From an uncultured Gammaproteobacteria bacterium (GTDB lineage: Bacteria; Pseudomonadota; Gammaproteobacteria; Steroidobacterales; Steroidobacteraceae), in NCBI GenBank assembly GCA_963789375.1, contig CAWBKN010000007.1:36188-100187 (forward strand): a DNA stretch of 64,000 nucleotides, in the 5' to 3' direction. How positions within the stretch are numbered: position 1 is the stretch's first letter; every line of letters starts with the position of its first letter. The notes below the pieces were generated by a model. That model saw only the letters and a program-made list of their open reading frames with translations. It was not told where the DNA came from and did not search any database. The position numbers and the translations under genes were made by a program. Of the stretch, positions 35,099-64,000 are shown piece by piece.

Positions 35099-35154
35099 GT
35101 CAGTCTCCTTGCGCGGTGTGCCCCTGGGCTGCGCGACACTGCTACCGCCTGACC

Positions 35155-37159: not shown

Positions 37160-38461
37160 GTGCAACGAATCGTGAGCGCATCGGCTCCGCCCCCCGCCCA
37201 GGGTCTCGACAAGTACAGCGCCCCGCAATGGCTCGGGGCGCGCGCCAATCGGCGCTTTCACGTGATGGCCAAGCCGGCCGGCTCGGCCTGCAACCTCGAC
37301 TGCGGCTACTGCTTCTACCTGAGCAAGCAGTCCCTGCCCGGGGGCCCTGGCGGCGGCCACATGTCGGATGCAACCCTCGAGCGGTTCGTCCGGGATTACA
37401 TCGAGAGCGTCACCGCCGACGAGGTCGTGTTCTCGTGGCAAGGCGGCGAGCCGACGCTGATGGGTATCGGGTTCTTCGAGAAGGTCGTCGCGCTGCAGAA
37501 GAAGCACGCCCGCGCGGGCCAGCGGATCGAGAACGACCTGCAGACCAACGGCACCCTGCTCGACGACGACTGGGCGCGCTTCCTCAAGGCGCACCGCTTC
37601 CTGGTGGGCCTCAGCGTCGACGGTCCGCGCGAGATCCACGACCACTTCCGCGTGACCAAGCGCGGCGAACCGACGTTCGATGCCGTCTGCAACGCGGCGC
37701 ACGCGCTCAGGAAGTTCGGCGTTCGTTACAACACGCTGACGTGCGTCCATCGCTACAACGCATCGCGGCCGCTCGATGTGTACCGGTTCCTGCGGCGCGA
37801 ACTGGGCTCGACCTACCTGCAGTTCATTCCGATCGTCGAGATCAAGGGCTTCGAGAACATCGCCCCGCAGGAGTGGGATCCGGCGTCGTTGCCCCTGCTC
37901 GGCGACCCACGGTGCCACCCGGACCACCCGGACTCCGTGGTGACGCCCTGGTCCGTCGTGGCCGAAGAATACGGCTCCTTCCTCTGCAAGATCTGGGACG
38001 AATGGCAGGCTCGCGACGTGGGCAAGGTGCTGGTCAACCTGTGCGAGACGCTGGTCGTGCAGCACATGGGGTTGCCGTCGCAGGTCTGCGTGCACAGCGA
38101 GTTCTGCGGCAAGGGCGTCGCGCTGGAGCACGGCGGCGACGCGTACAGTTGCGACCACTACGTCTACCCGGAATACCGGCTCGGCAACGTGCGTGACCAG
38201 TCGCTCGGCGACATGGTGTTCTCGCGGAACCAGGTGAAGTTCGGCTATGCGAAATCGGAGACGCTGCCGGCGTATTGCAGGCAGTGCGAGTTCCTGGGCG
38301 ACTGCTGGGGCGAGTGCCCGAAGAATCGCCTGTTACGCACGCCGGACGGCGAGCCGGGGCTGAACTACCTCTGCCCGGGCCTCAAGCGCTTCTTCTCGCA
38401 CGCCGTGCCGACGGCGAGGCGCATGGCGGCTCGGCTGCAGGCCAGGCAGACGCCTGCTTGA
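37160..38461 (+). CDS. Anaerobic sulfatase-maturating enzyme (radical SAM/SPASM)
   Basis: ..FHVMAKPAGSACNLDCGYCFYLSK (CX3CX2C), SWQGGEPTL, C-terminal SPASM Cys clusters ..CVHSEFCGKG..YSCDHYVY..CRQCEFLGDCWGECPKNR. GTG at 37160 or ATG at 37265 as start. Confidence 0.88.
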   Translation: MQRIVSASAPPPAQGLDKYSAPQWLGARANRRFHVMAKPAGSACNLDCGYCFYLSKQSLPGGPGGGHMSDATLERFVRDYIESVTADEVVFSWQGGEPTLMGIGFFEKVVALQKKHARAGQRIENDLQTNGTLLDDDWARFLKAHRFLVGLSVDGPREIHDHFRVTKRGEPTFDAVCNAAHALRKFGVRYNTLTCVHRYNASRPLDVYRFLRRELGSTYLQFIPIVEIKGFENIAPQEWDPASLPLLGDPRCHPDHPDSVVTPWSVVAEEYGSFLCKIWDEWQARDVGKVLVNLCETLVVQHMGLPSQVCVHSEFCGKGVALEHGGDAYSCDHYVYPEYRLGNVRDQSLGDMVFSRNQVKFGYAKSETLPAYCRQCEFLGDCWGECPKNRLLRTPDGEPGLNYLCPGLKRFFSHAVPTARRMAARLQARQTPA

Positions 38462-47500: not shown

Positions 47501-48061
47501 TGCCGCCACCGGCAGACGAGAAGGAATAGCGGCCCGCCATGAAGTCGGCGTCGCTGAGGTCGAGGGTGGAAGCGACCAGCCCGCCCACGTTCACCTGCGC
47601 GCCCTTGCCGAACAGGACGCCGTTCGGGTTGACAGGAACACCTTGCCGTTGGCCGACAGGCTGCCGAAGATGCTCGAGGGATCCGCGCCCAGCACCCGGT
47701 TGAGCGCCACCGAGCTGCTGTCGGGCTGCACGAACGGTGACGACCTCGCCCGGCCGATGCTGAAGCTCTGCCAGTTGATCGCGACGTTCTGGCTCGACTG
47801 GTTGATGGTCGGTTGCCGGCGCCGCGTCGCGATGCTGGCGCTGCCGGCGGACACCACGCCGCCCGTCGGCAACTCGGCCTGCGCACCGGCGCCGAACAGG
47901 AGCAGGCAGCCCGCGAACGCGGGCCCGGCGATGCGCGCTTGCCGCCGCCACACGACCGGTCCTCGGCGAGGACCTCTTGCCGGCCCTCTTGCGTGATCTC
48001 GGAGACTGCGACGAACGTGTTGCGCTTGTCACACCAGATCGATCCGATACGTGTGGTTCAT
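38504..48061 (-). pseudogene. Giant two-partner-secretion exoprotein (TpsA; filamentous-haemagglutinin family adhesin with >20 MBG/YDG-type repeats); about 20 or more frame breaks
   Basis: ESPR-like start MNHTYRI/IWCDKRNTFVAVSEITQEG. Signal ..AGCLLLFGAGAQA. TPS domain AINWQSFSIG..ALNRVLGADPSSIFGSLSANGKVFL..VNPNGVLFGKGAQVNVGGLVASTL. Beta-helix region 44.1-47.5 kb. Then repeats of YDGTAYSGGNGVTYSGFVNGETSAVLGGTLSYGGTSQGATNAGSYVITPQGLTAGNYAITF.NGALTI. Confidence 0.85.
38700..44100 (-). repeat. Tandem ~250-bp (about 83-aa) coding repeats inside tpsA
   Basis: The near-identical 30-mer GTAGGTGACGCCGTTGCCGCC(G/A)CTGTAGGC recurs at about 42447, 42697, 42946, 43198 and 43449, and in diverged form throughout. 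Protein-level repeats are listed above. Confidence 0.85.
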
Positions 48062-48122
48062 GGCGGTTCCTGAAATCGGTGGTCGTGTTCCCCGCTGCGT
48101 CTGTCGTCCTTCGGTCCGTCAC

Positions 48123-49797
48123 TCAGAAGAACTTCACGACCTGGACCCAGAAGCGGCTGTCGGCATCCGGAGCCGAGGTCGCTTCGTCGTTACCCAGCTT
48201 GAGGGCGTAAGAGAGCTTCACCATGAAGTTGTTCTCCTCCGCCCAGTTGATCCCCAGGCCCGCGGCACCGAGGCTTCGCCGGTTGTCGCCGGGTGCCCAC
48301 GGATCCTTGTGCAGGGTGACCTCGCCGGTAGTCGACGAAGCCGACCAGACTCAGCGTGCCCGGCATGCGCTCGGAAAACGCCGGCAGTGACCATCGACCT
48401 TCGATGGTCGCCACATAGCCCTGGTCGCCGTAGGCCTCGCCTTCGGGATACGCACGCACGGCGTACGGGCCGCCCAGTCCCATCTTCTCGGAGATGTCGA
48501 GGTTCTTCGACGCGACCTGGCCGTTGAACGAGCCGTAAAGCGAAACGCTGCTGGTCAGGTACTGGAGCCGCGTGACGGTGAGCGCAGCCTTGTCGTAGCG
48601 ACCGTTGGTGCGCGCGGTCGCGGCATCGATGGTGAGAACCTCCGCCGTCTTGATGTCGAGGTCGCCGCTGCTCCAGGTCAGGGACCAGCGCGTGTACCCG
48701 CCGCCGCCCAGCTGGTCGGCGTGATCGCCGTTGGCGTTCAGCATCCAGACGTTCGCGTCCTTGTCGGAAGCCGTGTCGACGATGCCGGCTTCGTCGTGGA
48801 ACTCGCGCTGGTCGTAGCCACCCTGGAGATACAGGTTGGTCGCCCGCGTGCGGAGCAACGGGTAGCTGGCGTAGCCGCTCGCCACCTTCGCGGTACCGTC
48901 GGCTTTCAGGTCCGCGAACTCCTCGCCGAGTCCGTACTGCATGTAGGCGTAAGACGCGCCGAGGCGGAACGCCCCGACCTGGAACTGGTAAGCGGCGCGG
49001 CCGTAGTCAAGGTCGTCCGCGGAAGTCATGCCGCGCAGCGTGAACGAGTCGCCGATGCCGAAGAGTTGATTGAAATTGACCGTGGCGCCGAGGCGGTTCT
49101 GGCCGGTGTAACGATTGCCGCCGTTGTCCGCGTCGACGCTGCCGGTAATGAACTGGCCGGGTTTCACTTCGACGGCCAGATCGGAGGTGCCGACCGTCGC
49201 ACCCGGGGACAGCGTGGCTTTCACCTTGACGCCGGGCAGGTCGGAGAGGAGCAGCAGGCTGCGCTCGAGCGGCGCCGCAGTGACCGGATCACCCGCGCGG
49301 ACATTGTCGTTGAGGAGGCGGTTGGCGAGTCCGTCGTTGACGCGCGACGTGTTGTCGAGCTTCAACTGGCCATAGCGACCTTCCACGACCGTGATGTAGA
49401 CGGTGCCGTCCGTGATCTCCTGCGCGGGCAGGTAGGCCTGCGCGACGAAGTACCCGCGGCGGTGGTAGTAGTCGGCAATGCGGCCGGCCATGGCACGCAA
49501 CTGGGTAAGCGTGAACTGGCCTCCGGCGCCGAAACCGGACTGGGCTATGAGATCACTCTCGGGGAGGGCGGCGGCGCCCGACACACGCAGTCGGGTTACG
49601 GCGAACTTAACCTCGTCCGCAGCGGCGGCTGGCACGGCCGGCGCGGTGCCAGGCTGGACCCTCAACTCGGGAGCCGTCCTTTCCAGGGCGGGCGACTGTG
49701 GGATCTGCTGGATCTGGCTGCCGGCCCGCGGCGGAACTTGAGCGAACACGCCGGGGGCAAGGGCGATCAACGCCAGCACGAGATATCTGCTTTGCAC
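48123..49797 (-). pseudogene. TpsB outer-membrane translocator (ShlB/FhaC/HecB family), one frame break near 48335
   Basis: Signal VQSRYLVLALIALAPGVFAQ (GTG 49797 with GGGGAG RBS). POTRA region ..FAVTRLRVSGAAALPESDL..YYHRRGYFVAQAYLPAQEI.DGTVYITVVEGRYG. Barrel ..GGPYAVRAYPEGEAYGDQGYVATIE.. C-terminus ..FWVQVVKFF in the shifted frame. Confidence 0.85.
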
Positions 49798-50184
49798 CGT
49801 GGGCTCCCCTTTGTTCTGGCACGGGGTGACCAGGGCTGGGGGCACGGGCGAGTCTTTGCACCATGGCGCACCGGCTGCTCGCGGCGGTCAACTCTGGGCG
49901 CACGTATGCATCAGATCGAAGTTATGTCATGTCAGACAATCGGGGAAAGCAACTATGCAGCCTGCCTTGGCTGCTGGACGCCTGCCACGCGGCCTGCTCG
50001 TCATCGACACGCGCAAGAGCTGTCCTGCGGTTGTCGCGTAATCCAAGGCAGGCCCGGCCCGCAAGCGGGAAAACCCGTAATTTCTACGCGGTCCCCTGTC
50101 GCTATCAGGCGTAAGAATAATGTCTAATTTCACCCTACGACGCAGCCGGCACCGGTGTCCCCGCTGGCGTCGCGGAGCGCTTCG

Positions 50185-51220
50185 ATGCACATGGCCGATG
50201 CACTTCTGTCCCCGGCAGTGGGCGGGACGATGTGGGCTGCAACCGCAGTCACGGTCGCATATTGCTCGCGCCGGCTGAGCCACGACGCGGACGACCGTCG
50301 GGTGCCGTTGATGGGTGTGCTCGGCGCTTTCCTGTTCGCCGCGCAGATGATCAATTTCGCCATCCCGGGCACCGGATCGAGCGGCCACCTCGGCGGCGGC
50401 TTGCTGCTCGCGATCCTGCTCGGCCCGCACGCTGCCTTCCTCGTCATGGCCTCGGTGCTCATCGTGCAGGCGCTGTTCTTCGCCGACGGCGGCCTGCTCG
50501 CACTCGGCTGCAACATCTTCAACCTCGGCTTCTTCCCGGCGTTCGTCGGCTATCCCGTTGTACCGATACCTGGCCGGGGACGCGCCCAGTACGCCTCGCG
50601 CCTCGGTCGCCGCCGTGCTTGCAGCGGTGCTGTCGCTGCAACTGGGCGCCTTCGCCGTCGTGCTGCAGACCGTCGCCTCGGGCATTTCGGCGCTGCCGTT
50701 CGGTACGTTCCTCACGTTCATGCTGCCGATCCACCTGGCGATCGGCATCGTCGAGGGCGCAGTCACCGCCACCGTCATCTCCTTCGTTCGCGCTGCACGC
50801 CCCGGCATGTTGCCGGTGGCGGGACGTTCCGGGCACGCCGTGCGCGGCATGGCGTCTGCCCTCCTCGTCGTCGCCCTTGCGCTCGGCGGCGTGGGCAGCT
50901 GGTTCGCGTCGACGAACCCGGACGGACTCGAATGGTCGATTGCCAGGGTCACCGGTTCGATCGAACCCGAAACCTCGCAAACCGGGGTGCAGGCTGCACT
51001 GGGTCGACTGCAGCAGCGGACCGCGATCCTGCCGGGCTATGGAGTTGGCGACGGGTCGATCACGGGCGCGCAGAAGGTCCAGGACCCGGGCGTGATCCCC
51101 CAGGGCGACAGCAGCGAGCGTCTTGGGAAGTCCCTGGCTGGGGTGATCGGCGGTTCGATCAGCCTTGTGCTCGCATTGCTCGTCGGCTTTGCGTTGAGAC
51201 TGTGGTCCGGGCGACGCTGA
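50185..51220 (+). pseudogene. cbiM: ECF transporter substrate-capture component CbiM/NikM fused to a PDGLE domain; one frame break near 50555
   Basis: MHMADALLSPAVGGTMW..GTGSSGHLGGGLLLAILLGP..QALFFADGGLLALGCNIFNLG (ORF 50155..). ..LPIHLAIGIVEGAVTA.. and ..WFASTNPDGLEWSIAR.. (ORF 50558..51220). Confidence 0.8.
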
Positions 51221-51224
51221 TCCC

Positions 51225-52040
51225 GTGTCCGCTCCCGCAGTCCTCACCAGCCTTCTCGACTTCCGACGCCTCGATCTGCTGGCGACTGGCGATTCGGCGC
51301 TGCATCGTCTCGACGCCCGCGCAAAGGTCCTCGTCACGCTGGTTTTCATCGTCTGCACGATGTCATTTCACCGCTATGCGGTGGCATCGCTCATCCCGTT
51401 CTTCGTTTACCCGGCGGCGGTCGTCACGGCGGCCCGGCTGCCGATCGCATTCCTGTTGCGCAAGGTCGCCCTCGTGCTGCCGGTGGCGCTGCTGATCGGG
51501 CTGCCGAATCCCTGGTTCGATCGCGCGGTGATGTTGCAGCTGGGTGGGCTGGAAGTGAGTGGCGGCTGGATCTCGCTGCTTTCGATCGTGCTGCGATCGT
51601 TGCTTGCCGCCGCGGCTGCCATCGCGCTGGTGGCAGTCACGGGGTTTCCGGCGATCTGCGGCGCACTGGAGCGGATGGGCATGCCTCGCTCGCTGGCGGT
51701 ACAGCTGCTCTTCCTCTATCGCTACCTGGCCGTCCTCGGCGAGGAGGCCGTGCGGATGACGGTCGCCCGTGAGCAGCGCGGCGGCGGGCGCCCGTTGTCG
51801 ATTCGCCTCTACGGGACGCTGGTCGGTCGCCTGCTGCTCAGGACCTGGGACCGGGCGGAGCGCATCTATCTCGCGATGTGCGCTCGCGGCTTTACCGGCG
51901 ACTTTCGTGGCGGCCCGCCGTCAGGATTCGGGCGCCCTGGCATCGCCTACGTGGCCGGTTGGTGCGGACTCTTCCTGCTGCTTCGCACCCAGGACGTGAC
52001 CGGCTGGCTCGGCGCGGCGGCGCTCGGTGTGCTGCGATGA
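51225..52040 (+). CDS. cbiQ: ECF transporter transmembrane (T) component CbiQ/NikQ
   Basis: Intact 271 aa. ..LHRLDARAKVLVTLVFIV.., ..MPRSLAVQLLFLYRYLAVLGEEAVRMTVAREQRG.. (CbiQ signature region). GTG start 4 nt after cbiM. Confidence 0.8.
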   Translation: MSAPAVLTSLLDFRRLDLLATGDSALHRLDARAKVLVTLVFIVCTMSFHRYAVASLIPFFVYPAAVVTAARLPIAFLLRKVALVLPVALLIGLPNPWFDRAVMLQLGGLEVSGGWISLLSIVLRSLLAAAAAIALVAVTGFPAICGALERMGMPRSLAVQLLFLYRYLAVLGEEAVRMTVAREQRGGGRPLSIRLYGTLVGRLLLRTWDRAERIYLAMCARGFTGDFRGGPPSGFGRPGIAYVAGWCGLFLLLRTQDVTGWLGAAALGVLR

Positions 52041-52795
52041 GCCACCACCTGGTCGAAGCCCGCGGGCTGTCGCACGTCTACGAGGACGGCACCGTCGCGC
52101 TGAAGGACGTGTCGTTCCGGATAACGCACGGCGAGTCGGTCGCGATCATCGGCGCCAACGGCGCGGGCAAGTCCACGCTGCTCATGCATCTCAACGGCCA
52201 TCTGAGCCCGACGAGTGGTGAGATCCGCATCGGGGAGACGCCGCTCACGAAGGAGACCCTGCCAGCGATTCGCCGGACGGTCGGCCTGGTCTTCCAGGAT
52301 CCCGACGACCAGCTGTTCATGCCGACGGTCTACGACGACGTCGCGTTCGGCCCGCGCAACCAGGGGTTGCCCGAGGCGGAAGTCGACCGCAGGGTTCACG
52401 AGGCACTGCAGCGTGTCGGGGTCTGGCACGTTCGCCGCAAGCCCCCCTACCGGCTGTCCGGCGGCGAGAAGAAGCGGGCCGCGATCGCCGGCGTCCTGGC
52501 GATGGCGCCGGACATCCTGGTGATGGATGAGCCGACCAGCGGACTCGACCCGTACGCGCGCCGGCAACTGATCGAACTGCTCGGCGAGTTCCATCACACA
52601 CGAATTTTCACGAGCCACGACCTCGACATGGTCCTGGACCTCTGCCCGCGAACGATCGTCCTGCTCGAGGGCGCGGTGATGGCCGACGGGCCGACCCGGG
52701 ACATATTCGCGGACGATGCCCTGCTGTCGAGATGCCGGCTCGAGCGGCCACTGGCCCTGCAGGCTTGTCCGGTCTGCGGATCCAGGCGCGACTGA
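52037..52795 (+). CDS. cbiO: ECF transporter ATPase component CbiO/NikO
   Basis: ATGA overlap with cbiQ. Walker A GANGAGKST, signature LSGGEKKR, Walker B ILVMDEPTSGLD. Confidence 0.88.
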   Translation: MSHHLVEARGLSHVYEDGTVALKDVSFRITHGESVAIIGANGAGKSTLLMHLNGHLSPTSGEIRIGETPLTKETLPAIRRTVGLVFQDPDDQLFMPTVYDDVAFGPRNQGLPEAEVDRRVHEALQRVGVWHVRRKPPYRLSGGEKKRAAIAGVLAMAPDILVMDEPTSGLDPYARRQLIELLGEFHHTRIFTSHDLDMVLDLCPRTIVLLEGAVMADGPTRDIFADDALLSRCRLERPLALQACPVCGSRRD

Positions 52796-52808
52796 GAGGG
52801 AAAAGAGC

Positions 52809-53279
52809 ATGGAACGAATCACGATGTCGATCGACGAGGAGCTCGCGAAGGCGTTCGACGAGTTGATTGCAGCCCGGGGCTACACGAGTCGATCCGAGGC
52901 GATGCGCGACCTGCTGCGTCGCGAGGTGGGGACACGCCGTGCCAGCGACAAGCCGCGCTCGCAATGCGTGGCCAGCCTGTCCTACGTGTACAACCATCAC
53001 GTGCGCGACCTGGCGGAGCGCCTGACGGCTGCGCAACACGCGCACCACAGCCTCGTCGTCGCGACGACGCACCTGCATCTGGATCACGAGCATTGCCTGG
53101 AGAACGTGTTCCTCAAGGGACCGACGCTGACCGTACGCGAGTTCGCAGACAGCGTTCTTGCCGAACGTGGGGTTGCGTACGGCGCGATCAACCTCATCAC
53201 CGTGGAGGGCAGCGACAGGCACCCGCTCGCCGCTCCGCACCAGCATCACGGACACATGCACCTGACGCCGGTCACCTGA
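52809..53279 (+). CDS. nikR: Nickel-responsive repressor NikR
   Basis: RHH N-terminus MERITMSIDEELAKAFDELIAARGYTSRSEAMRDLLR. C-domain SLSYVYNHHVRDLAERLTAAQHAHHSLVVATTHLHLDHEHCLE is collinear with the E. coli NikR Ni-site residues. His-rich tail HQHHGHMH. Confidence 0.88.
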   Translation: MERITMSIDEELAKAFDELIAARGYTSRSEAMRDLLRREVGTRRASDKPRSQCVASLSYVYNHHVRDLAERLTAAQHAHHSLVVATTHLHLDHEHCLENVFLKGPTLTVREFADSVLAERGVAYGAINLITVEGSDRHPLAAPHQHHGHMHLTPVT

Positions 53280-53925
53280 CCCCGCCGCAGTTCACGGCTG
53301 CAAGTTTCCGGTCCCGGGTCGACTTGAAGCGCTTCAGGCGATAATGCGCCTCGCGCTCGCGTTCGCCGAGAAACTGCACGATGGTGCGGATCTCGGCCTG
53401 CAACCGGGGCAGCACCCGCTCTTCGAGCACCCGGGTCCGCCGCGTCACGCGCAGGATCTCCTCACCGAGCATCTTGAGCTTGCTCTCGAACGCGGCAATT
53501 TCCAGCATCGTCTCGAGGATCGACTCGAACAGGCGCGTGGCCTCGTCCAGGTGCGGCGTAGTGACGGTGTAGTCGTAGCCACGCTCCGCGGGCTGGCGCA
53601 CGAACGGGCCGAACACGGTGAGCTCACGGTAGCGCACGCCCATCGCATTGCGTTCCTCGACGTCGACGCCGACCGGGCGCTCGGCCAGCGAGGCCAGCGA
53701 CTCGATGCTCGCCATGCCTTCGTGGCCCTCGCTCAGGTGCAGCTCGCCGAGCGCCTTCGCGTAATCGAGCCGGATGGCATCCCGCGAGCGCACGAACGGA
53801 CGGATCGACTCGAGGAAGTCGCGAATCAGTGCCTGGCGCCGCGCCTTCAGGATCGCGACGCTGTTGCCGATCGAGGCGGCCTTGCCCTGCAGCTCGCGCA
53901 GGTCCGTGCGAGTCGGATGGATCAT
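53272..53925 (-). CDS. V/A-type ATPase subunit D
   Basis: Intact 217 aa. MIHPTRTDLRELQGKAASIGNSVAILKARRQALIRDFLE.. coiled-coil central-stalk subunit. Last gene of the operon. Confidence 0.85.
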   Translation of the reverse strand: MIHPTRTDLRELQGKAASIGNSVAILKARRQALIRDFLESIRPFVRSRDAIRLDYAKALGELHLSEGHEGMASIESLASLAERPVGVDVEERNAMGVRYRELTVFGPFVRQPAERGYDYTVTTPHLDEATRLFESILETMLEIAAFESKLKMLGEEILRVTRRTRVLEERVLPRLQAEIRTIVQFLGEREREAHYRLKRFKSTRDRKLAAVNCGGVR

Positions 53926-55265
53926 GCCAGCGGCAGCCCGAACCGTTCGAGCAACGCCCGACTGGTGTCGAGCGTATCGCCGATCGTGCGTCGAACGGCG
54001 CCCTGGTGCACCACCTCGCGTTCGAACGCGTCGGCGAATTCCAGCATGCGCTTGTCCGCGTCGCTCAGGCCTTCGCGGCCGACGATGGCCTCGAGTCGCC
54101 GCAGGTCACGCCCCTTGGCGTAGTGCATGTACAGCGCGTTGGCCACGGCGCGGTGGTCTTCGCGCGTGCGGCCCTTGCCTATGCCCCGCTGCATCAGCCG
54201 CGAGAGGCTCGGCAGCACGTCCACGGGCGGGAAGACGCCCCGCTGGTGCAGCTCGCGGCTCAGGACGATCTGCCCCTCCGTGATGTATCCCGTCAGGTCG
54301 GGGATCGGGTGGGTGATGTCGTCTTCCGGCATGGTCACGATCGGCAGCATCGTCACCGAGCCCGGACTCTGCTTGATGCGGCCTGCGCGCTCGAAGAGCG
54401 ACGCGAGGTCGGAATACAGGTAGCCCGGATAGCCGCGCCTGCCGGGCAGTTCTTCGCGCGCCGTGGAGACTTCGCGCAGCGCGTCGCAGTAGTTCGTCAT
54501 GTCGGTCACTACGACGAGCACGTCGCGCCCATGCTCGAACGCCAGGTACTCGGCCACCGTGAGCCCGAACCGCGGCGCCAGCAGGCGCTCGACGACCGGG
54601 TCCTTCGCCAGGTTGATGAATGCGACGTAGTCGCCGCGGACCTGCTCGAGCGTGCGCCGATAGAAGGCGTACTCGTGGTACGCAAGACCCAGCGCGACGA
54701 AGACCACGATCGAGCGCTTGCCGGGCCCGGACTCGTCGCCGCCCGTCGTCCTGGCCTGCTCGAGGATGCGCGCGGCGATCTCGCGCGACGGCAACCCGGC
54801 GCAGGAAAAGATCGGCAGCTTCTGCCCCTTCACGAGCGTGTTCAGCCCGTCGATGCACGACAGACCGGTCTCGATCATCTCCTGCGGGCGCTCGCGTGCC
54901 ACCGGGTTGATCGGAAAGCCCGTCACCGGCGCCCATTTCTCCGGCAGGAACATCGGCATGCCATCGAGCGGCTGGAACGACCCGCCGAAGGTCCGGTTGA
55001 GCACCGCGAGCGACAGGGGTGCCCGCTTGATGGTGTCGGTGAACACGACGCGGGAGCGGTCGAGGTCCAGGCCGCGGCTGTCGCCGATCACCTGGATCAG
55101 CACCGTGTCGCGCTCGATCCGCAGCACCTCGCCTTCCGCCTCGTGACCGTCCGGGAACACGATCGTGACGACCTCGCCCATGCGGGCTGCGACGACCGAG
55201 TCGACGAACAGCAGCGGCCCCTGGATGCTGCGCAGCGTTGCGTAGCTATGCTGGCTGAGTCGCAT
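53922..55265 (-). CDS. V/A-type ATPase subunit B
   Basis: MRLSQHSYATLRSIQGPLLFVDS...; ..YPGYLYSDLASLFERAG.., ..VTMLPIVTMPEDDITHPIPDLTGYITEGQIVL.. Intact. An alternative upstream start is at 55313. Confidence 0.92.
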   Translation of the reverse strand: MRLSQHSYATLRSIQGPLLFVDSVVAARMGEVVTIVFPDGHEAEGEVLRIERDTVLIQVIGDSRGLDLDRSRVVFTDTIKRAPLSLAVLNRTFGGSFQPLDGMPMFLPEKWAPVTGFPINPVARERPQEMIETGLSCIDGLNTLVKGQKLPIFSCAGLPSREIAARILEQARTTGGDESGPGKRSIVVFVALGLAYHEYAFYRRTLEQVRGDYVAFINLAKDPVVERLLAPRFGLTVAEYLAFEHGRDVLVVVTDMTNYCDALREVSTAREELPGRRGYPGYLYSDLASLFERAGRIKQSPGSVTMLPIVTMPEDDITHPIPDLTGYITEGQIVLSRELHQRGVFPPVDVLPSLSRLMQRGIGKGRTREDHRAVANALYMHYAKGRDLRRLEAIVGREGLSDADKRMLEFADAFEREVVHQGAVRRTIGDTLDTSRALLERFGLPLA

Positions 55266-56727
55266 GGTGTCCGTCCGTGCTTGCGGCTTCGGCCGCGGCG
55301 CCTTCAATGACATTCCTCAGCGTCTCGCCCTGCGCGAGCCTCGCGGCGGCTGCGTCGTGCTCGGCGAGCAATCGCCGGATCGCGGCGCCGGTCTGCAGCG
55401 GCGTCGAGAATGCATCCTCGGTGTAGGCGTTCTGCGCGAGGAATTTCTGCCGGATCAGTTCCGTCGTGCGCATGAGCAACCGGTCGGCGTCCTGCAGACC
55501 CTCGGTGCCCACGATCTCCGCGACCTCCCGCAGGCTTTCCTCCCGTTGCAGCAACTCTCGCGTCCTCTGCCGCAGCGCGCCCCAGTCCGGGGCGACCTGC
55601 TGCTCCAGGTGCGCGACGACCTCGGCTTCGTACAGCGAAAAGCTCCTGAACCAGTGGATGGCCGGGAAGTGCCTGCGGTGCGCAAGCGACGTGTCGAGCA
55701 TGAAGAACGCGCCGGTATTGCGCAGGCACGACTGCGTGACGGGTTCGGTGAAGTCGCCGCCCGGCGGCGAAATGGAAAGCAGCACGGTCAATGAACCGAT
55801 CTTGCCGTCGAGCGTCTCGACGACGCCTGCGCGCGCGAAGAACTCGGCGAGGCGCGAACCGAGGTACGTCGGATAGCCCTCCTCGCCCGGCATTTCCTCG
55901 AGCGCCGACGAAATTTCCCGCAGGGCTTCGGCCCAGCGCGACAGGCTGTCCGCCAGCAGCAGCACGTGCTTGCCCATGTCGCGGAAATACTCGGCCATGG
56001 TGACGGCCGTGTAGATGGACGCTTCGCGCGCCGCGACGGGCATGTTCGACGTGTTGACGACGACGATGGTCCGTTCCATGAGCGGACGCTTGCGCCACGG
56101 ATCCTCGAGCACGGAAAAATCGTCGAGCATTTCCGCCATCTCGTTGCCGCGCTCGCCGCAGCCCACGTAGACGACGATGTCGACCTCGGCGAACTTCGCA
56201 ATGGACTGCTCGAGCAGCGTCTTGCCCGTGCCGAAGCCGCCGGGAAAGATCGCACTGCCGCCGCGCGCGAGCGGGAACAGGAAGTCGATGCTGCGTTGCC
56301 CCGTGACCAGAGGCTCGAAGGTCGACAGCTTGCGTCGATAGGGCCTTGGCAGGCGGACGGGCCAGTCTTCCGCCGCGCCGGCGTCATCCTTCCCGGCCTC
56401 GACCGTCCCCGCGGACTCTCCCGGCCGCAGGAATGGCCCGTGTGCCCGGTGCATCGCCTCGAGCGGGCGCTGCAGGCCATCGAACATGTGCCCGAGCAGA
56501 CCGGGCTCGAGCCTCACGGTGAGCTGTGTGCCCGTGCCGATGACGGGCTCGCCGACACCGAGCCCGCGCGTGCTTTCGTACACCTGCACGATCGCCCGTC
56601 CACGCTCGAGGCGGACCACTTCGCCCATCAGCGCGGCGTGCCCCACGGTGACCCGCTCGTAGAGCAGCAGGCCCGGCAGGTCGACCGTGACCGTCGGGCC
56701 CGAGATGCCGATGATGCGCCCTTCCAT
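55246..56727 (-). CDS. V/A-type ATPase catalytic subunit A, short form (493 aa) lacking the bulge/non-homologous region
   Basis: [15 protein letters not shown].., P-loop GGFGTGKT at about residue 163, A-subunit signatures VYVGCGERGNEMAEML and SRWAEALREISSALEEMPGEEGYPTYLGSRLAEFFARAG. Intact. ATGA overlap with subunit F. Confidence 0.92.
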   Translation of the reverse strand: MEGRIIGISGPTVTVDLPGLLLYERVTVGHAALMGEVVRLERGRAIVQVYESTRGLGVGEPVIGTGTQLTVRLEPGLLGHMFDGLQRPLEAMHRAHGPFLRPGESAGTVEAGKDDAGAAEDWPVRLPRPYRRKLSTFEPLVTGQRSIDFLFPLARGGSAIFPGGFGTGKTLLEQSIAKFAEVDIVVYVGCGERGNEMAEMLDDFSVLEDPWRKRPLMERTIVVVNTSNMPVAAREASIYTAVTMAEYFRDMGKHVLLLADSLSRWAEALREISSALEEMPGEEGYPTYLGSRLAEFFARAGVVETLDGKIGSLTVLLSISPPGGDFTEPVTQSCLRNTGAFFMLDTSLAHRRHFPAIHWFRSFSLYEAEVVAHLEQQVAPDWGALRQRTRELLQREESLREVAEIVGTEGLQDADRLLMRTTELIRQKFLAQNAYTEDAFSTPLQTGAAIRRLLAEHDAAAARLAQGETLRNVIEGAAAEAASTDGHHATQPA

Positions 56728-57044
56728 CAGCTGAGCCTCACCTGGTAGCCGATGGCACGGCGAATCAACTGCAGGACGTAGTCCTCCTCGACGGCCTCGC
56801 CCTTCTTCGGGGCGGGCAGTGCGATCACGAGTCCCGGCCACGCCCTGTCCAGCTCGCGCATCAGCTCGCGCATCGCCCTGCTGACGAGCCTTTCGTCGAT
56901 GATCACGAGGCCCGCCAACGGGTCGCGTGAGATCGCGCGAAGTACGCCTGGCGCCTGGTCGGCGTCCGCACTGAGCTGCCGGACTCCGGCAAGCGTGAAT
57001 CCGTGCATCGCATCCGGTGGCGTGACGACCACGATTTTTTTCAT
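56727..57044 (-). CDS. V/A-type ATPase subunit F
   Basis: [24 protein letters not shown]...LVIIDERL..., 105 aa. In the ORF track it is artificially fused to subunit C (ORF 56727..57977). Confidence 0.8.
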
Positions 57045-57977
57045 GCGATCAGCTCCCGCTCCAGCGCGCCGGGGTCGAGGTCCCCCGCATGGAACAGGAG
57101 CGCGCGGTTGCGCGCGTGGATGTACTGGCGCCACGCGTAGTCGAGGATCGTCCCTACGTCGCCCTCCCGGCCAATGCGCGTGAACGCAGGCGGTCAGGCT
57201 GCCGAGCAGGATCGACTCCAGCGCAACCTCGTTCGTCGCCACCGGCGGGGCATCCCGTCCGGCGACGGTCCTGACCAGTTCATCGAGCGCCACACCGTCC
57301 CGGCGTGCCGAGGCGTCCCGCAGCCGCGCGCAATCGATCCTGCCACCGACGATGAAATCCCCCGCATCCCCCGCGCCCCAACGCAGGTGCTTGTACAAGG
57401 TCATCAGGTTGCGCAAGTCGATGTAAGCGACGAAGAATCGCCTGATCGCCGGATGCAGGCGCAGCTTGCCCAGGCTCTCGAGATGGGCACGCACCAGTCG
57501 ATGCTCGAGCCCATGCAATCCCTCCCTGGCGTAGGCGCGCTGCAGCAGAGCGACCTCGTCGGCTTCGTCGGACCACGCCTCGGCGAGCGCAGCCGTCGCG
57601 GCGGCGACGTCCTGCTGCCCGAGCATTGCGTCACGGAGCGCATCGCTCAACTGGCTGTCCGCGAGCAGTCGCTCGACGTCCGACGCGCGCTCGGCCGCCT
57701 TGTTCCTCAGGCACAGCACGATCGTCTTGATCTCGAACAGGACGAACACCGGCGTGAAGTGATCACGCAGCGCGCGGTTCATCTGGGCGCGCAGCCAGGC
57801 GAATTCCCGCAGCATCGCGTCCCAGATGGCCTCGTCGGACGAAGCCGGCGTCCCCCGCGGCGTGCGCGAGTTGCGCCACTCCGCAGCCAGGGCGGCGCGG
57901 CGCGCCCTGACTCGCGCGAGCAGGTAATCGGTGGGGTAACCATCCCCCGGCAAGTCACGCAGCAGTTGCTTCATCAC
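57041..57977 (-). pseudogene. V/A-type ATPase subunit C (eukaryotic d-like), one frame break near 57180
   Basis: [62 protein letters not shown].. The shifted frame gives ..[50 protein letters not shown], overlapping the F start (ATGA). Confidence 0.75.
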
Positions 57978-58540
57978 GTGACTCCGGCAGGAGGGTTCCG
58001 ATCAGCGCTGGCAGGATGTCCGGCCAGGCCATGGCGAGCCGCGTCTCCAGTGTATTACTGACGTGGACGCGCCCCTCGACCGCATCGACGGTCATGCCGC
58101 CGGAGATCGATGGATCACACACGACCTCGGCCACGGGAAACCTCGAGCGCGCCAGGTCAGCGTCCGCCGGATTGACCCGGACGCGCTGCCAGTCGAAGGC
58201 GGGCAGCTCCGCCGCAAGCGCCGAGAACAGTGCGCCGCCAAATTGCTCGCGAAAGCGAGGCAACTCCTCGGCGGCCAGGCATCGGCAGCGCTCGGCGAGC
58301 CCGAGCGGCAGCCTTGGCGCGAGCTTCGCGGGCGTGTCGCCGTGCCTCGGTCATGGACTCGCTTTCGATCTTCCGCTTGAGCGCCGTGGCCGCTTGCGAG
58401 TATTTCGCGCGCTCGGCCGCCGCCACCCGGGCCAATTCCTCGCGGTAGGCCTCCGCGGTGGCCCGGGCATCGCCCCACACGGCCTCGCGGTCAGCCGCGG
58501 CCTTGCCCCGCAGCGACTCGAGCAGTGCCTCGCGGCCCAT
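57955..58540 (-). pseudogene. V/A-type ATPase subunit E (peripheral stalk), one frame break near 58310
   Basis: Coiled-coil N-terminus MGREALLESLRGKAAADREAVWGDARATAEAYREELARVAAAERAKY.. (ORF 58157..58540). Globular C-terminus ..VRVNPADADLA..GGMTVDAVEGRVHVSNTLETRL.. (ORF 57955..58263). Position between K and C. Confidence 0.7.
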
Positions 58541-58543
58541 GAC

Positions 58544-58777
58544 TCATCCCTGCAGCAGGATCATCGCGGCGATCACGAAGCCGAGGATGACGATCGTCTC
58601 CGGGATGGCGAGCAGGATGATGATCGTCGCCGTGAGTTCGGGCTTCTCCGCCAATGCGCCGGCGCCCGACGCGCCGATCCGCGACTGGACCCACGCCGTG
58701 GCCAGCGCGCTGATGCCCAGCGCGAGGGCGGCGGCAAACGCCATCAGGACCTTGTCCCAGTGCACTGCAACGTCCAT
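58544..58777 (-). CDS. V/A-type ATPase proteolipid subunit K (single-hairpin c subunit)
   Basis: MDVAVHWDKVLMAFAAALALGISALATAWVQSRIGASGAGALAEKPELTATIIILLAIPETIVILGFVIAAMILLQG, 77 aa, two TM helices with the conserved PET carboxylate. Resembles the Thermus-type proteolipid as I recall it. Confidence 0.85.
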   Translation of the reverse strand: MDVAVHWDKVLMAFAAALALGISALATAWVQSRIGASGAGALAEKPELTATIIILLAIPETIVILGFVIAAMILLQG

Positions 58778-58788
58778 GGCAGACCTCC

Positions 58789-60663
58789 TTATTCGGCTTT
58801 CTTGAGCGGCTGGTAGCGTCGACCGCCGGTCTCGAGGAACTTGCTGAAGAACTCGACATAGTGAAGACGCAGCGCGTGCACGGTAGGCGCAAACACGCCG
58901 AGCACGATGTTGAACGCATGCAGCAGCACGGCGACGAAGACGCCCAGCCAGAGGCTGCCGGCCGCGCCCGCGAGGCTGTTGGCGACATAGGCCAGCAGCA
59001 CCGACGCGAGGCCGACGGCCATGATGCGCACGTAGGAGACGACGTTGCCGAGTGTCCGCAGCAGTTCGAACGGCGCGAGCAGGCCGCCCGTGAGCAACAG
59101 GACCGGCACGGCGACGAGGACCGCCATCAGCAGCGGCTTGCGGAACAGCTCGCCGACCGGCGCCATGTACGAGGCGAGCAACCCGCCGATGCAAAGCAGC
59201 ATGACGATGCTGACGACCCTGGAGGCCGCTTCTTTCCTGTGGTGAGCCTTTACGGCGCCAAACACCCCGACGACGAGTCCGATGAGCATGTGAACACCGC
59301 CGACCGCGAGGGCGAAGTACAGCATCGGCATGATCGAGGTGCGCCGATCGATGCAGGCGGTCTGCAGCCCGAGCAACCGCATGCCGAAGTCGCCGAAGCA
59401 TTCGCCGTAGAGGACGCCGAACACGATCGTATAGATCGATGCGACCAGCAGTATCTGCCCGACCTGCCGCAGCGTGCGTCGACTCCTGCGTTTTCCGACC
59501 AGCATCAAGGCCCCGGCAGCAAGAAGCAGCAGCGCGCCATAGCCCACGTCGCCGAGGATCATGCCAAAGAAGAGCGGGAAGAAGATGCCGATGAAAGGCG
59601 TGGGATCGATCGACGTGTAGCGCGGTGTGGGCAGCATCCGCACCAGCAGTTCGAATGGCCGAAAATAGCCCGTGTTGCGCAACGCGACCGGCACTTCCTC
59701 GAGGTCCTGCTTGAGGATTTCGCGCTCTTCGACGACGACCGTGTCGCCGTGGTGCTCGGCGAGTTTGCCGCGCAACCCGTCGACGGCCGCGGCCGGCATC
59801 CAGCCATACAGGACGAAGCATCGGTCGGTCTCGTAGACCGACGCGCTGGTCCGCAGCAGTGAAAGGCGGCGCTGCAGCCACGCCCGCACGCTGGAGTAGA
59901 TCCCGCGCCAGGACGTCGCGAAATCGTGGGCTTCCTTCTCGATGGCTGCGATTTCGGCGATCAAGCCGTCACGCTTCTGCTGTGCGAGCCGGAGCTTCTC
60001 CGGCAGCGGTCGTTCTTCCAGGTACGACGGCAGGCTGATCTCGGGGATGTGGCTCTCGCGCAGGCTCTCCTTGAGCTTCGCCGCCAGGTCCTTCTCGGTC
60101 GTGAGCAGGCCGATGTAGGAACCGTCCTGGGCCTGGGCGGTGCGGACCTCCGCGCCCAGCAGGACGCGGCCCGCGACGCGCGTGAGTTGCTCGAGCGCGG
60201 CGGGATCCCTCACCTCCACGCCGATGAAGTCGAGACCGGCCGCCTCCGCGCCTTTCGGTGCGAGCGACTCGACGGTCGTCAGGAACACGAGGTAGCGACC
60301 GAGCTGGGAGAGCTCCGCCTGGAGCTCGTCATGGTGCTGTCTGCGCTTCTCGGCGGCGTCGAGATGCTTGCCGATGACGTTGGCGATCGAGTTGATCGCC
60401 CGCGACGGGTCCAGGTAGGACTCGCGCGTCTCCACCTTCGGCAGCAGGGCCAGCAGCCGCTCGACCTTCAGGTTGAGGTCTTCGAGGAACAGCCGCTCCG
60501 CGAGCGTCTTGCCGTCGAGCGCCAGGGGCCGGATCTCAGGCACGACGCCTTCGTCGATGCGCTGCCGGATGTCGGGATCGATCTGCAGGACCTCCGACCT
60601 CTGGATCGTCTCGAGCACGGGCAGCAACAGGGTGCGCGGCCCGGTGATCTCGACCTTGGACAT
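58789..60663 (-). CDS. V/A-type ATPase subunit I (a-subunit, stator/ion channel)
   Basis: MSKVEITGPRTLLLPVLETIQRSEVLQI.. soluble N-domain, then 7-8 TM helices with ..NVVSYVRIMAVGLASVLLA.. (essential Arg region) and ..LRLHYVEFFSKF.. Start at the internal Met of ORF 58789..61050. Confidence 0.88.
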   Translation of the reverse strand: MSKVEITGPRTLLLPVLETIQRSEVLQIDPDIRQRIDEGVVPEIRPLALDGKTLAERLFLEDLNLKVERLLALLPKVETRESYLDPSRAINSIANVIGKHLDAAEKRRQHHDELQAELSQLGRYLVFLTTVESLAPKGAEAAGLDFIGVEVRDPAALEQLTRVAGRVLLGAEVRTAQAQDGSYIGLLTTEKDLAAKLKESLRESHIPEISLPSYLEERPLPEKLRLAQQKRDGLIAEIAAIEKEAHDFATSWRGIYSSVRAWLQRRLSLLRTSASVYETDRCFVLYGWMPAAAVDGLRGKLAEHHGDTVVVEEREILKQDLEEVPVALRNTGYFRPFELLVRMLPTPRYTSIDPTPFIGIFFPLFFGMILGDVGYGALLLLAAGALMLVGKRRSRRTLRQVGQILLVASIYTIVFGVLYGECFGDFGMRLLGLQTACIDRRTSIMPMLYFALAVGGVHMLIGLVVGVFGAVKAHHRKEAASRVVSIVMLLCIGGLLASYMAPVGELFRKPLLMAVLVAVPVLLLTGGLLAPFELLRTLGNVVSYVRIMAVGLASVLLAYVANSLAGAAGSLWLGVFVAVLLHAFNIVLGVFAPTVHALRLHYVEFFSKFLETGGRRYQPLKKAE

Positions 60664-60996
60664 CCTAACGAGCACGGACGCGTCTCCGGCACGAGCACCA
60701 CGAGGCACTCGCGCACCTTGTCTCTCAGCGCTGCTTCGGACCAGCGATCCACCGCCCCCGTGACCTGGGCCGATTCGGCCAACGCCAGCGCCGCGTGGTC
60801 TTTCGCAGACTGTCCGGACCGCCTCTTCGGCCCGCTCTGCCTCCTGCCGGATCCGTTCCAGCTCGGCCAGGTGCGCCGTCTCGATCTCGCGCCGCGCATT
60901 CTCGAGCCACTGGCTCGCTTGCTGGCGTTCGGCGTCGAGCTGCTCGCGCAACTGCTTTTCGACCCCGAGGATTTCCTGAAGTGTGCTTTGCTCCAT
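60664..60996 (-). pseudogene. Small coiled-coil V/A-ATPase subunit (G/H-like), first gene of the operon; 3' end unclear (frame break or fusion to I)
   Basis: MEQSTLQEILGVEKQLREQLDAERQQASQWLENARREIETAHLAELERIRQEAERAEEAV.. Typical peripheral-stalk heptad pattern, and its position upstream of I matches G-I-K-E-C-F-A-B-D operons. A plausible continuation ..AKDHAALALAESAQVTGAVDRWSEAALRDKVRE.. is in another frame. Confidence 0.5.
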
Positions 60997-61153: not shown

Positions 61154-61714
61154 ATGCGTCGCCGCCCTTTCTCGACTATCCGCATCGGGTGCACGCTGCT
61201 GTTCCTGATCGCATCTCTGGCAGGAGGTTCTGTCATGGCCATGGAAATTTCGTCGACGGCGTTCGGCCCGGGTGCCGCAATCCCTTCACGACATACCTGT
61301 GAGGGGGGCGACGTTTCGCCACCCCTGAAATGGAGCGGTGTGCCGGCCGGCACGAAGTCGCTGGTACTCATCGTCGACGACCCGGATGCGCCGGATCCGC
61401 GCTCGCCGAAAATGACCTGGGTGCACTGGGTGCTCGCAAACCTTCCACCGGATGCGGATGGACTGCCGGAAGGCGTCTCGCGCGACGCCTTGCCGCACGG
61501 AACGATCGAGGGCCAGAACGACTGGAAGCGCACCGGCTATGGCGGCCCGTGCCCGCCCATCGGCCGGCACCGGTATTTTCACAAGATCTACGCGCTGGAC
61601 ATCGGCCTGGCGGGACTCAGACATCCGACCAAGGCCGACGTCGAGGCCGCGATGAAAGGACACGTGCTGGCGCACGCGGAGCTCGTGGGAACCTACGCGA
61701 AGAGCGCGCGCTGA
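61154..61714 (+). CDS. YbhB/YbcL-family PEBP (Raf kinase inhibitor-like) protein with signal peptide
   Basis: ..SLVLIVDDPDAPDP..WVHWVLANLP..GYGGPCPPIGRHRYFHKIYALD.. canonical PEBP motifs. Intact 186 aa. Confidence 0.88.
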   Translation: MRRRPFSTIRIGCTLLFLIASLAGGSVMAMEISSTAFGPGAAIPSRHTCEGGDVSPPLKWSGVPAGTKSLVLIVDDPDAPDPRSPKMTWVHWVLANLPPDADGLPEGVSRDALPHGTIEGQNDWKRTGYGGPCPPIGRHRYFHKIYALDIGLAGLRHPTKADVEAAMKGHVLAHAELVGTYAKSAR

Positions 61715-62704: not shown

Positions 62705-64000
62705 TCAGGCCTCGACGGCCATGTAGACGAATCGCGCGACGAACAAGGCCGCCAGCGCGAACAGCAGCCAGTCGTCGCGGTTGACGCGCCGAGCGGCGAT
62801 CTTCAGGAGGGCGTAGGCGACCACGCCGAATGACAGGCCGTTGGCAATCGAGAACGTCAGCGGGATCGTGATCAAGGTCAGGAACGCGGGGATGGCGACG
62901 ACCGGGTCGTCCCAGTCGATCTCCATCAAGGGCGCCATCATCATGCCGCCCACGAGGATCAGCGCCGGTGCCGTCGCGGCCGCCGGGATCACCTGCGCCC
63001 ACGGGGCGACGAACAGCGTGGCGAGGAAGAGAAGGCCGACGACGACCGCCGTCAGGCCGGTGCGCCCGCCCGCCGAGACGCCCGAAGCGCTCTCGATGTA
63101 GCTGACCACGGTGGACGTGCCCGCCAGCGAGCCCACGACCGTGGCGCTCGCGTCGGCGAACAGGATGCGGTTCAGGCGCGGTATGGTGCCGTCAGGCTGC
63201 ACCAGTCCCGCCTTCTTGCTGACCGCCACGAGCGTGCCCACGTTGTCGAACAGGTCGACGAACAGGAAGACGAACAGGATCTCCAGCAGCGCCAGGCCGA
63301 AGCCGTGGCCGCCGATGCCGAGCGCAGCCGGGATATCGAGCTGGAACGCGGTCCCGGTCATCTGGCTCGACGTCGTAGGGCTGCGGCGCCCACACGGCGA
63401 GACCCAGGACCCAGCCGAGCACGGCGGTCGCGACGATGCCGATCAGGATCGCGCCGCGCACTTTCAGCACGGTCAGGACCGCAAGGATCGCAAGACCCAG
63501 CAGCGCGAGCTGGGTGGCAGGCGCGTGAATGTTGCCGAGTCCGACCACGGTGGCGGGGTTGGCCACCACCAGGCCCGCGCCGCGCAGGCCGATGAATGCA
63601 ATGAAGAGGCCGATGCCGGCAGCGATCGCCGAGAACAACGCACGCGGGATGGCACTGACGATCAGCTGGCGCACGCCGGCGAAAGTCAGCACCAGGAACG
63701 CGACACCGGAGATGAAGACGAGGCCGAGCGCCGTCTGCCACGGCACGCCCATCCCCTGCACCACGGTGAAGGCGAAGTAGGCATTCAGTCCCATGCCCGG
63801 CGCGAGTGCGATCGGGTAGTTGGCGATGAGCCCCATCATCAGGCAGCCAATGCCGGCGGCGAGGCAGGTCGCCGCCGCGACGCCTGCGGCCGGCATGCCG
63901 GTGGTGCTCAGGATCGAAGGATTGACCAGGACGATGTAGGCCATGGTCAGGAAGGTCGTGAACCCGGCCAGCACTTCGGTCCGGACGGTGGTTCCGGCTG
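62705..64000 (-). pseudogene. NCS2/AzgA-family purine (adenine/guanine/hypoxanthine) permease; N-terminus off-window; frame break near 63360
   Basis: ..LAGFTTFLTMAYIVLVNPSILSTTGMP..GMGLNAYFAFTVV.. (ORF 63192..63974). ..LVAVSKKAGLVQPDGTIPRLNRILFADASATVVGSLAGTSTVVSYIESASGV.. (ORF 62705..63361). Confidence 0.82.

Follow-up and report, generated by a model that had tools for sequence, protein, structure and literature searches.

The best described relative of the system reported here is the V/A-ATPase of Thermus thermophilus, an H+-ATP synthase whose genes stand in the order atpGILECFABD and whose subunits assemble as A3B3DF-E2G2-d-a-c12. Where each ring subunit is one hairpin bearing one carboxylate, the ion/ATP ratio is high and suits ATP synthesis, whereas duplicated proteolipids are found in dedicated pumps. 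The non-homologous region of the catalytic subunit A has for decades been a textbook difference between V/A and F heads. In Thermus A this part of the protein comprises a bulge (A113-184) and a proline linker (A185-204) (PMC2775895). We analyzed a stretch of 64,000 nucleotides (nt), hereafter the window, from contig CAWBKN010000007.1 (assembly GCA_963789375.1) of an uncultured gammaproteobacterium of the Steroidobacteraceae, in which nine co-directional genes at 53272-60996 on the minus strand encode a V/A-type ATPase with a catalytic subunit that has no bulge.

We consider it likely that this region encodes a complete and functional Thermus-like V/A rotary ATPase/ATP synthase, that the frame breaks in some of its genes are errors, that the operon has long been resident in its lineage, and that the bulge of subunit A has been lost. 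The operon alone is ordinary and adds little; the new element is the bulge-less catalytic subunit.

The listed open reading frames, together with translation of the minus strand in all three frames, give the order G-I-K-E-C-F-A-B-D, which is that of a complete prokaryotic V/A-type rotary ATPase operon. Family models from Pfam and NCBIfam match eight of the nine subunits, all but the first small gene, and both lines of evidence bear out the gene content and order given in a preliminary description of this DNA. The genes, with lengths in amino acids (aa), and the site of the missing bulge are as follows.

60665-60996, minus strand: G (H in archaeal nomenclature), presumed peripheral-stalk subunit, from its position and 109-aa orthologues
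58789-60663, minus strand: I (a), membrane stator and ion channel, 624 aa, intact; PF01496 V_ATPase_I and NF004430 (6.6e-81)
58544-58777, minus strand: K (c, proteolipid), 77 aa, intact; PF00137 ATP-synt_C (7.5e-16)
57955-58540, minus strand: E, peripheral stalk, 194 aa once corrected; PF01991 vATP-synt_E, a weak match to the C-terminal piece
57041-57974, minus strand: C (d, AC39), rotor-to-ring adaptor, ~310 aa once corrected; PF01992 vATP-synt_AC39
56727-57044, minus strand: F, central stalk, 105 aa, intact; PF01990 ATP-synt_F, with the L035 orthologue matching NF003047
55246-56727, minus strand: A, catalytic, 493 aa, intact, bulge-less; NF003220 (9.7e-187)
56371-56418, minus strand: short loop at the bulge position, ~16 residues (A ~104-119), placed by alignments, followed by the proline linker WPVRLPRP
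53922-55265, minus strand: B, non-catalytic, 447 aa, intact; NF003235 (3.9e-183), ATP-synt_ab and VA_C
53272-53925, minus strand: D, central shaft, 217 aa, intact; PF01813 ATP-synt_D (1.9e-36) and TIGR00309

Subunit A of the window (493 aa) gave no match to PF16886, the family model for the bulge. When it is aligned with A of Pyrococcus horikoshii, residues 1-108 pair with 4-111 and residues 120-473 with 191-547, so that residues 112-190 of the archaeal protein (~79) have no counterpart. About 16 residues replace the ~70-residue bulge, and this loop is disordered in an AlphaFold2 (AF2) model, with predicted local distance difference test (pLDDT) values below 50. Judged by these alignments, the missing segment can be identified as the bulge domain of the non-homologous region. 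The proline linker is kept (WPVRLPRPYRRKL...PL), and its residues W122, P123, P127, P129, and P139 vary little or not at all. Spacing between the DGLQR and WPVR motifs is 33-42 residues in the window clade versus 93-97, with a PF16886 match, in full-length sisters. These sister A proteins, of ~539 aa, are 74-83% identical to window A and keep the bulge segment. An exact look-up of the window A protein retrieved no record. Bulge-less A subunits were found in proteins P0002-P0013 and in loci L001, L035, L037, and L038. Since these derive from separate assemblies, the deletion is not an artefact of the window assembly.

Across the 120 best database matches, the DGLQR-WPVR segment measured 28-42 residues in 36 proteins, 93-97 in 81, and 69 in one. 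A neighbour-joining (NJ) tree computed with the bulge segment left out placed the short forms in two separate clades, one containing the window (A lengths of 470-501 aa, bootstrap 95/100) and a second with A lengths of 452-461 aa (100/100), and each bulge-less clade has a nearer relative with the bulge. Because the two clades were never monophyletic in 100 NJ bootstraps (0/100), a single origin of the loss is ruled out in this distance-based analysis, and the bulge is placed as lost at least two times independently within one bacterial family. Two further proteins stand out: P0071 (513 aa), nearly identical to full-length P0083, has a partial bulge deletion, and P0033 (553 aa), although it has the bulge, groups within the bulge-less window clade in the full tree, where its branch is long. 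When 150 proteins representing clusters at 50% identity were examined, P0197 (400 aa, 50% identical) was the sole other A that is gap-free across the bulge position, and it may be an unrelated second bulge-less A-like protein. Seven apparent cases were set aside: P0264, P0180, P0187, P0270, and P0261 are N-terminally truncated gene calls in which the bulge is still there, and the sequences of P0267 and P0234 look frame-garbled.

The peripheral stalk is reported to bind the N-terminus of B and not the bulge of A (PMC6131620), which makes V/A assembly without the bulge plausible. With the bulge lost from A, the A3B3 head would be expected to come closer to the rounder F1 head. Given at least two losses of the bulge and purifying selection on the rest, we lean, by a little, towards the view that a natural V/A lineage works without it. 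We found no description of natural bulge-less A subunits, or of A subunits without the non-homologous region, in full-text searches of the literature. If bulge-less enzymes are active, the bulge would be dispensable for prokaryotic assembly and rotary catalysis, and the proline linker would be the part that matters. Natural deletions that keep the linker would then be ready material for testing the role of the non-homologous region, and their repeated occurrence allows matched comparison of enzymes from close relatives with and without the bulge, whose A subunits are 75-83% identical.

Two motifs of subunit A, GGFGTGKT (Walker A) and GERGNE, are invariant in 61 family members. The best solved matches of A are the Pyrococcus, Thermus, and Enterococcus A subunits (1e-145 to 1e-134), with F1-beta following at ~1e-40. 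Its AF2 model (pLDDT 75.8, predicted template modelling score, pTM, 0.77) is closest in Foldseek to Thermus A, at a template modelling (TM) score of 0.78. For both A and B, F-type models score far below V-type models, and sequence comparison places A as a V/A-type catalytic subunit and not F1-beta. Subunit B reads SCAGLPSRE at the P-loop position and thus has no P-loop. The central rotor set of D (PF01813), F (PF01990), and C (PF01992) is present, with intact orthologues. The stalk is less clear-cut, as Pfam and NCBIfam models match subunit E only weakly and its Protein Data Bank (PDB) match stands at E = 0.011. We presume the first small gene to be G on the basis of its position, size, and Glu/Arg/Ala-rich sequence suggesting a helix; G precedes I in ~20 operons.

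In the membrane sector, subunit I aligns with Thermus subunit I over residues 54-622 (best solved match 5y5x_N, 2e-38), and both ring-facing arginines are kept, in SYVRIMAVG (SHIRIYAVG in Thermus) and in HALRLHYVEFF (PIRLLWVEFF in Thermus). Subunit K is a single hairpin with Gln31 and Pro59-Glu60-Thr61, and Glu60 aligns with the carboxylate of both Thermus and E. hirae (Glu139). The preliminary description of K as a 77-aa single hairpin with a PET carboxylate thus agrees with the PF00137 match and the alignment with Thermus c. The best solved match of K is the Thermus c12-ring subunit 6qum_O (1.4e-11), which has the same Q...PET residues. Where E. hirae has Gln65 and Tyr68, and Thermus Leu and Phe, K has Ile62 and Leu65. 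The full E. hirae-type Na+ ligand set is therefore not present: Gln31, Glu60, and Thr61 are kept and the residues at positions 62 and 65 differ. All predicted Na+ enzymes have a polar residue at the Gln65 position (Mulkidjanian et al., PMC2359735). With a Thermus-like K that has neither the polar residue nor the Tyr at the Na+ positions, we predict with moderate confidence that the coupling ion is H+. The earlier statement that H+ and Na+ coupling could not be told apart from K can accordingly be narrowed, the Ile and Leu at these two positions resembling the H+-coupled Thermus enzyme. Thermus c is reported to form a c12 ring in an H+-driven synthase (Toei et al. 2007 and Yokoyama et al. 1998, cited in PMC2359735). 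One carboxylate per single hairpin, as in Thermus, leads us to predict a gear ratio that permits ATP synthesis.

By analogy with the Thermus enzyme, an A3B3 head would sit above a D-F-C(d) rotor mounted on a ring of single-hairpin K subunits, with subunit I serving as the membrane stator and ion channel and E-G pairs as the peripheral stalks. Ions would pass between the conserved arginine of I and Glu60 of K, and rotation of ring and shaft would drive the three A/B catalytic sites to make or split ATP. The sequences show the genes and their order, the catalytic and channel residues, and the recurrent deletion of the bulge; from these we infer the activity of the enzyme, its coupling ion, the direction in which it operates, and its coexistence with F1Fo.

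The operon is tightly packed. Read from the sequence, the B/D and C/F junctions are ATGA overlaps, 20-nt overlaps occur at A/B and at E/C, and the gap between K and E is 3 nt. The I/K gap is 11 nt with GGAGG inside it, and G and I meet at TAGGATG. Orthologues in L035, L037, and L038 place the start of B 20 nt inside A. These junctions match those listed in the preliminary description (B/D, C/F, A/B, and K/E) with one correction: F and A meet at TGATG, a 1-nt overlap, and not at ATGA. An Rfam search of the window returned three tRNAs only, all far from the operon.

Operons of this kind form a coherent family, widespread in soil and sediment, whose nine genes keep a fixed order. Some 28 loci share the arrangement G-I-K-E-C-F-A-B-D; they belong to Gammaproteobacteria, Acidobacteriota, Desulfuromonadales/Geobacteraceae, Nitrospirae, and beta- and delta-proteobacterial metagenome-assembled genomes (MAGs). 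The whole family falls in one 50%-identity cluster (representative P0121), with the next cluster at ~52% identity. A tree of subunit B has Desulfuromonadales and Nitrospirae at its base; Gammaproteobacteria are not confined to one position in it, and one gammaproteobacterial MAG lies within a group of Acidobacteriota. This mismatch with taxonomy implies that transfers between phyla have occurred. In the same tree the window sits in a gammaproteobacterial cluster with MAGs of Steroidobacteraceae and Nevskiaceae, its closest relatives; together with lon-clpX-tig in the window, this agrees with the gammaproteobacterial background assumed earlier.

The preliminary description had further proposed horizontal acquisition, to be checked against subunit phylogeny and codon usage. 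Transfers do appear in the history of the family. The window copy, however, nests within a gammaproteobacterial operon clade and shows no sign of recent acquisition, which goes part of the way towards the outcome that the preliminary description had named as refuting its reading. The GC content at third codon positions (GC3) is 0.88 in the operon and 0.91 in the backbone, and relative synonymous codon usage (RSCU) of operon and backbone correlates at r = 0.98, a value equalled when one half of the backbone is set against the other. With GC, GC3, and RSCU all matching the backbone, we reject recent transfer on grounds of composition. Host-like codon usage, placement in the gammaproteobacterial clade, and a PEBP-family neighbour common to L037 and L038 mark the operon, as far as sequence can tell, as an old resident of a Steroidobacteraceae/Nevskiaceae-like lineage. 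Its occurrence in Gammaproteobacteria, described earlier as uncommon, is also less surprising in light of the literature. V-type ATPases of Gamma- and Deltaproteobacteria, always beside an F-type enzyme, were tabulated in 2008 (PMC2359735, Table 1), and 46% of bacterial phyla have A/V-type genes, in most cases alongside F-type ones (PMC10656485). A search of the literature on V-type ATPases in Steroidobacter found nothing relevant.

The PEBP-family gene is divergent from the first ATPase gene (61154-61714 in the window, 5098-5577 in L037, and 5389-5577 in L038) and is the only conserved neighbour of the operon. The downstream side varies. In the window it holds a Ni/Co uptake cluster of cbiM (broken), cbiQ, cbiO, and nikR (50155-53279), convergent on the ATPase operon, and the stop end of nikR overlaps that of D by 8 nt. 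In relatives this side carries TIR-TPR genes (L001, L037, and L038) or an amino-acid permease (L035).

Three of the nine genes are interrupted in the sequence as given. DNA comparison with the intact orthologues of L035, a short-read contig that is 92% identical to the window and begins in K, located one +1 insertion near 58308 in E and one near 57175 in C, where there is also an in-frame 3-nt difference. In G, comparison with the intact 109-aa orthologues (L001, L037, and L038) revealed two +1 insertions, near 60813 and 60675, and G becomes 109 aa long with both extra bases removed. One break each in C and E and intact I, A, B, and D had been noted before; the single break reported for the first small gene is in fact two. 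The other six genes (I, K, F, A, B, and D) are unbroken, and I, A, B, and D have neither frameshift nor premature stop. Relatives are intact: all nine genes in L037, L038, and L001, and K, E, C, F, A, B, and D in L035, whose E (194 aa) and C (311 aa) are 81% and 88% identical to those of the window.

Broken frames are not confined to the operon. Viterbi decoding of codon usage, counting switches with no stop codon nearby and with both flanking segments at least 100 nt long, detected 49 same-strand frame switches without a stop codon across the 64-kb window; at least four of them are true gene overlaps, leaving ~45 breaks. Among housekeeping genes, tig is divided over two frames. In addition, cbiM and an NCS2 permease look split; examples of broken frames lie at 10324-11606, 50155-51495, and 62705-63974. 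The strongly conserved lon, clpX, ABC-F, and deaD genes and the sulfatases are unbroken. In L026, L027, and L030, which are MFD long-contig MAGs, tblastn matches to A, B, and other subunits come in short pieces and seem frame-broken like those of the window. After frame correction, the ratio of nonsynonymous to synonymous substitution rates (dN/dS) was 0.25 for E and 0.21 for C (versus L035) and 0.32 for G (versus L037), within the 0.17-0.43 observed between intact orthologue pairs, and the broken genes give no sign of relaxed selection. The four breaks in G, E, and C are most likely single-base assembly errors without biological meaning, since they are +1 differences from intact orthologues, occur alongside breaks throughout the window that include tig, and affect genes whose dN/dS resembles that of intact pairs. 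The pattern across the window suggests an error-prone assembly, perhaps partly corrected by homology, and the frame breaks in this window are a warning against reading biology into them.

Several observations weigh against a functional enzyme of the kind proposed. G, E, and C, which make up 1.85 kb, contain all four breaks, while the remaining 5.9 kb of the operon is free of them, a clustering with a probability of ~0.003 under a uniform rate by our own arithmetic, which implies that some process beyond random error was involved; homology-guided frameshift correction during assembly would perhaps fit the unbroken state of the conserved genes. G has no Pfam or NCBIfam match and no meaningful PDB sequence match to solved G/H subunits. 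The promoter search found no promoter-like sites, and terminator-like sites were at chance level. The ion assignment consists of two aligned positions and the Thermus analogy. Mutations in the yeast non-homologous region alter coupling efficiency (cited in PMC2775895), so loss of the bulge could alter or impair function. The insertions and their clustering would also suit a decaying pseudogene cluster, in which G, E, and C truly are frameshifted, the cell makes neither stator nor rotor adaptor, and the complex does not work, and a window so rich in broken frames resembles a genome in reduction. We regard this as unlikely. Dead G, E, and C genes would have freed I, A, B, and D (5.5 kb) from selection, yet none of these has a frameshift or stop; E, C, and G match intact pairs in dN/dS; the universally conserved tig is broken as well; no in-frame stop codons remain in the operon once single bases are removed; and the genes are intact in relatives from other assemblies (L001, L035, L037, and L038).

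If the complex is functional, its service to the cell can be read in more than one way. It might be a dedicated ATP-driven ion-extrusion pump, for H+ under acid stress or for Na+, auxiliary to an F1Fo synthase, a reading put forward in the preliminary description and akin to ideas about acid-tolerant nitrifiers. This is possible but, to our mind, doubtful. The Gamma- and Deltaproteobacteria listed with V-type enzymes all have F-type ones too (PMC2359735), the two types mostly co-occur in bacterial phyla (PMC10656485), and V-type operons acquired horizontally by a comammox Nitrospira are highly expressed at low pH, where proton extrusion has been proposed (PMC13109103). However, that acid-stress enzyme groups with those of ammonia-oxidizing archaea (AOA), making the analogy a loose one (PMC13109103). 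K, with one carboxylate per two helices, resembles the Thermus synthase and not the duplicated proteolipid of Enterococcus and eukaryotes, and has neither the polar residue nor the Tyr for Na+ binding; the neighbours nikR-cbiMQO and PEBP give no hint of pH or salt stress. The synthase-compatible gear ratio and Thermus-like architecture, with purifying selection on the operon across a whole clade of related MAGs, would conversely allow it to be the only or primary ATP synthase of its host, F1Fo being absent as in Thermus and Deinococcus. We consider this very improbable, given that the listed proteobacteria with a V-type enzyme all keep the F-type (PMC2359735) and that many matches labelled Steroidobacteraceae or Gammaproteobacteria are known only from MAGs, pointing to an accessory operon of patchy occurrence. 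A tblastn search with an E. coli AtpD query detected no F-type beta in the window and, among 38 loci, only in L033 and L034, which are unrelated weak-match contigs. From the co-occurrence in other proteobacteria, the host probably has an F1Fo enzyme alongside the V/A operon. The preferred reading remains a Thermus-like V/A rotary ATPase/ATP synthase.

Two other loci of the window deserve mention. A two-partner secretion locus on the minus strand (38607-49845) comprises a ShlB/FhaC-type TpsB gene (48190-49845) and, adjoining it, a very large exoprotein rich in MBG/YDG repeats that is split into frame-broken pieces from 38607 to ~47900. In addition, two sulfatase genes on the minus strand (33551-35299 and 35155-36681) adjoin a radical SAM/SPASM gene on the plus strand (37160-38461), the arrangement expected for a sulfatase-maturating enzyme.

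Among known systems, the Thermus V/A-ATPase is the nearest in architecture. It shares the same nine subunits and gene order with the window operon and provides the best solved match for K (6qum_O) and I (5y5x_N) and, by fold, for A (7vai_A and 6qum_A, TM 0.78, 42-44% identity). Like K, its c subunit forms one hairpin and carries Gln...Pro-Glu-Thr, and both a-subunit arginines are conserved in the window. The two differ in subunit A, which is 578 aa long with the bulge A113-184 in Thermus and 493 aa without it here (identity ~43-50%), and in G, which in the window has no detectable similarity to solved G/H subunits. The window host, in contrast to Thermus, is a gammaproteobacterium of mesophile and soil type that probably has F1Fo too. 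The Na+ V-ATPase of E. hirae (ntp) has a homologous subunit set and the same head fold (3vr4, TM 0.80), and in alignment Gln31, Glu60, and Thr61 of K pair with Gln110, Glu139, and Thr of NtpK. NtpK is nonetheless a duplicated 156-aa proteolipid of four helices with one carboxylate, whereas K is a 77-aa hairpin, and it has Gln65 and Tyr68 where K has Ile62 and Leu65. The E. hirae enzyme is a dedicated pump whose A has the bulge that window A lacks.

Sister operons with a full-length A (for example L002-L006 from Gammaproteobacteria, Bryobacteraceae, and Desulfuromonas versatilis P0099) have the same gene order as the window and are 76-97% identical to it in K, 66-85% in B, and 58-75% in A. For the shortened A itself, the nearest parallel is an engineered P. 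horikoshii A (PDB 5x09, 538 aa), listed as a fusion of two A segments and ~50 residues shorter than the wild type (588 aa). Residues 120-473 of window A align with residues 141-497 of 5x09 and with 191-547 of the wild type, a shift in numbering which implies that part of the non-homologous region was removed from the construct. While 5x09 is an archaeal protein made in the laboratory, window A is of natural origin, and its short form is fixed throughout a clade.

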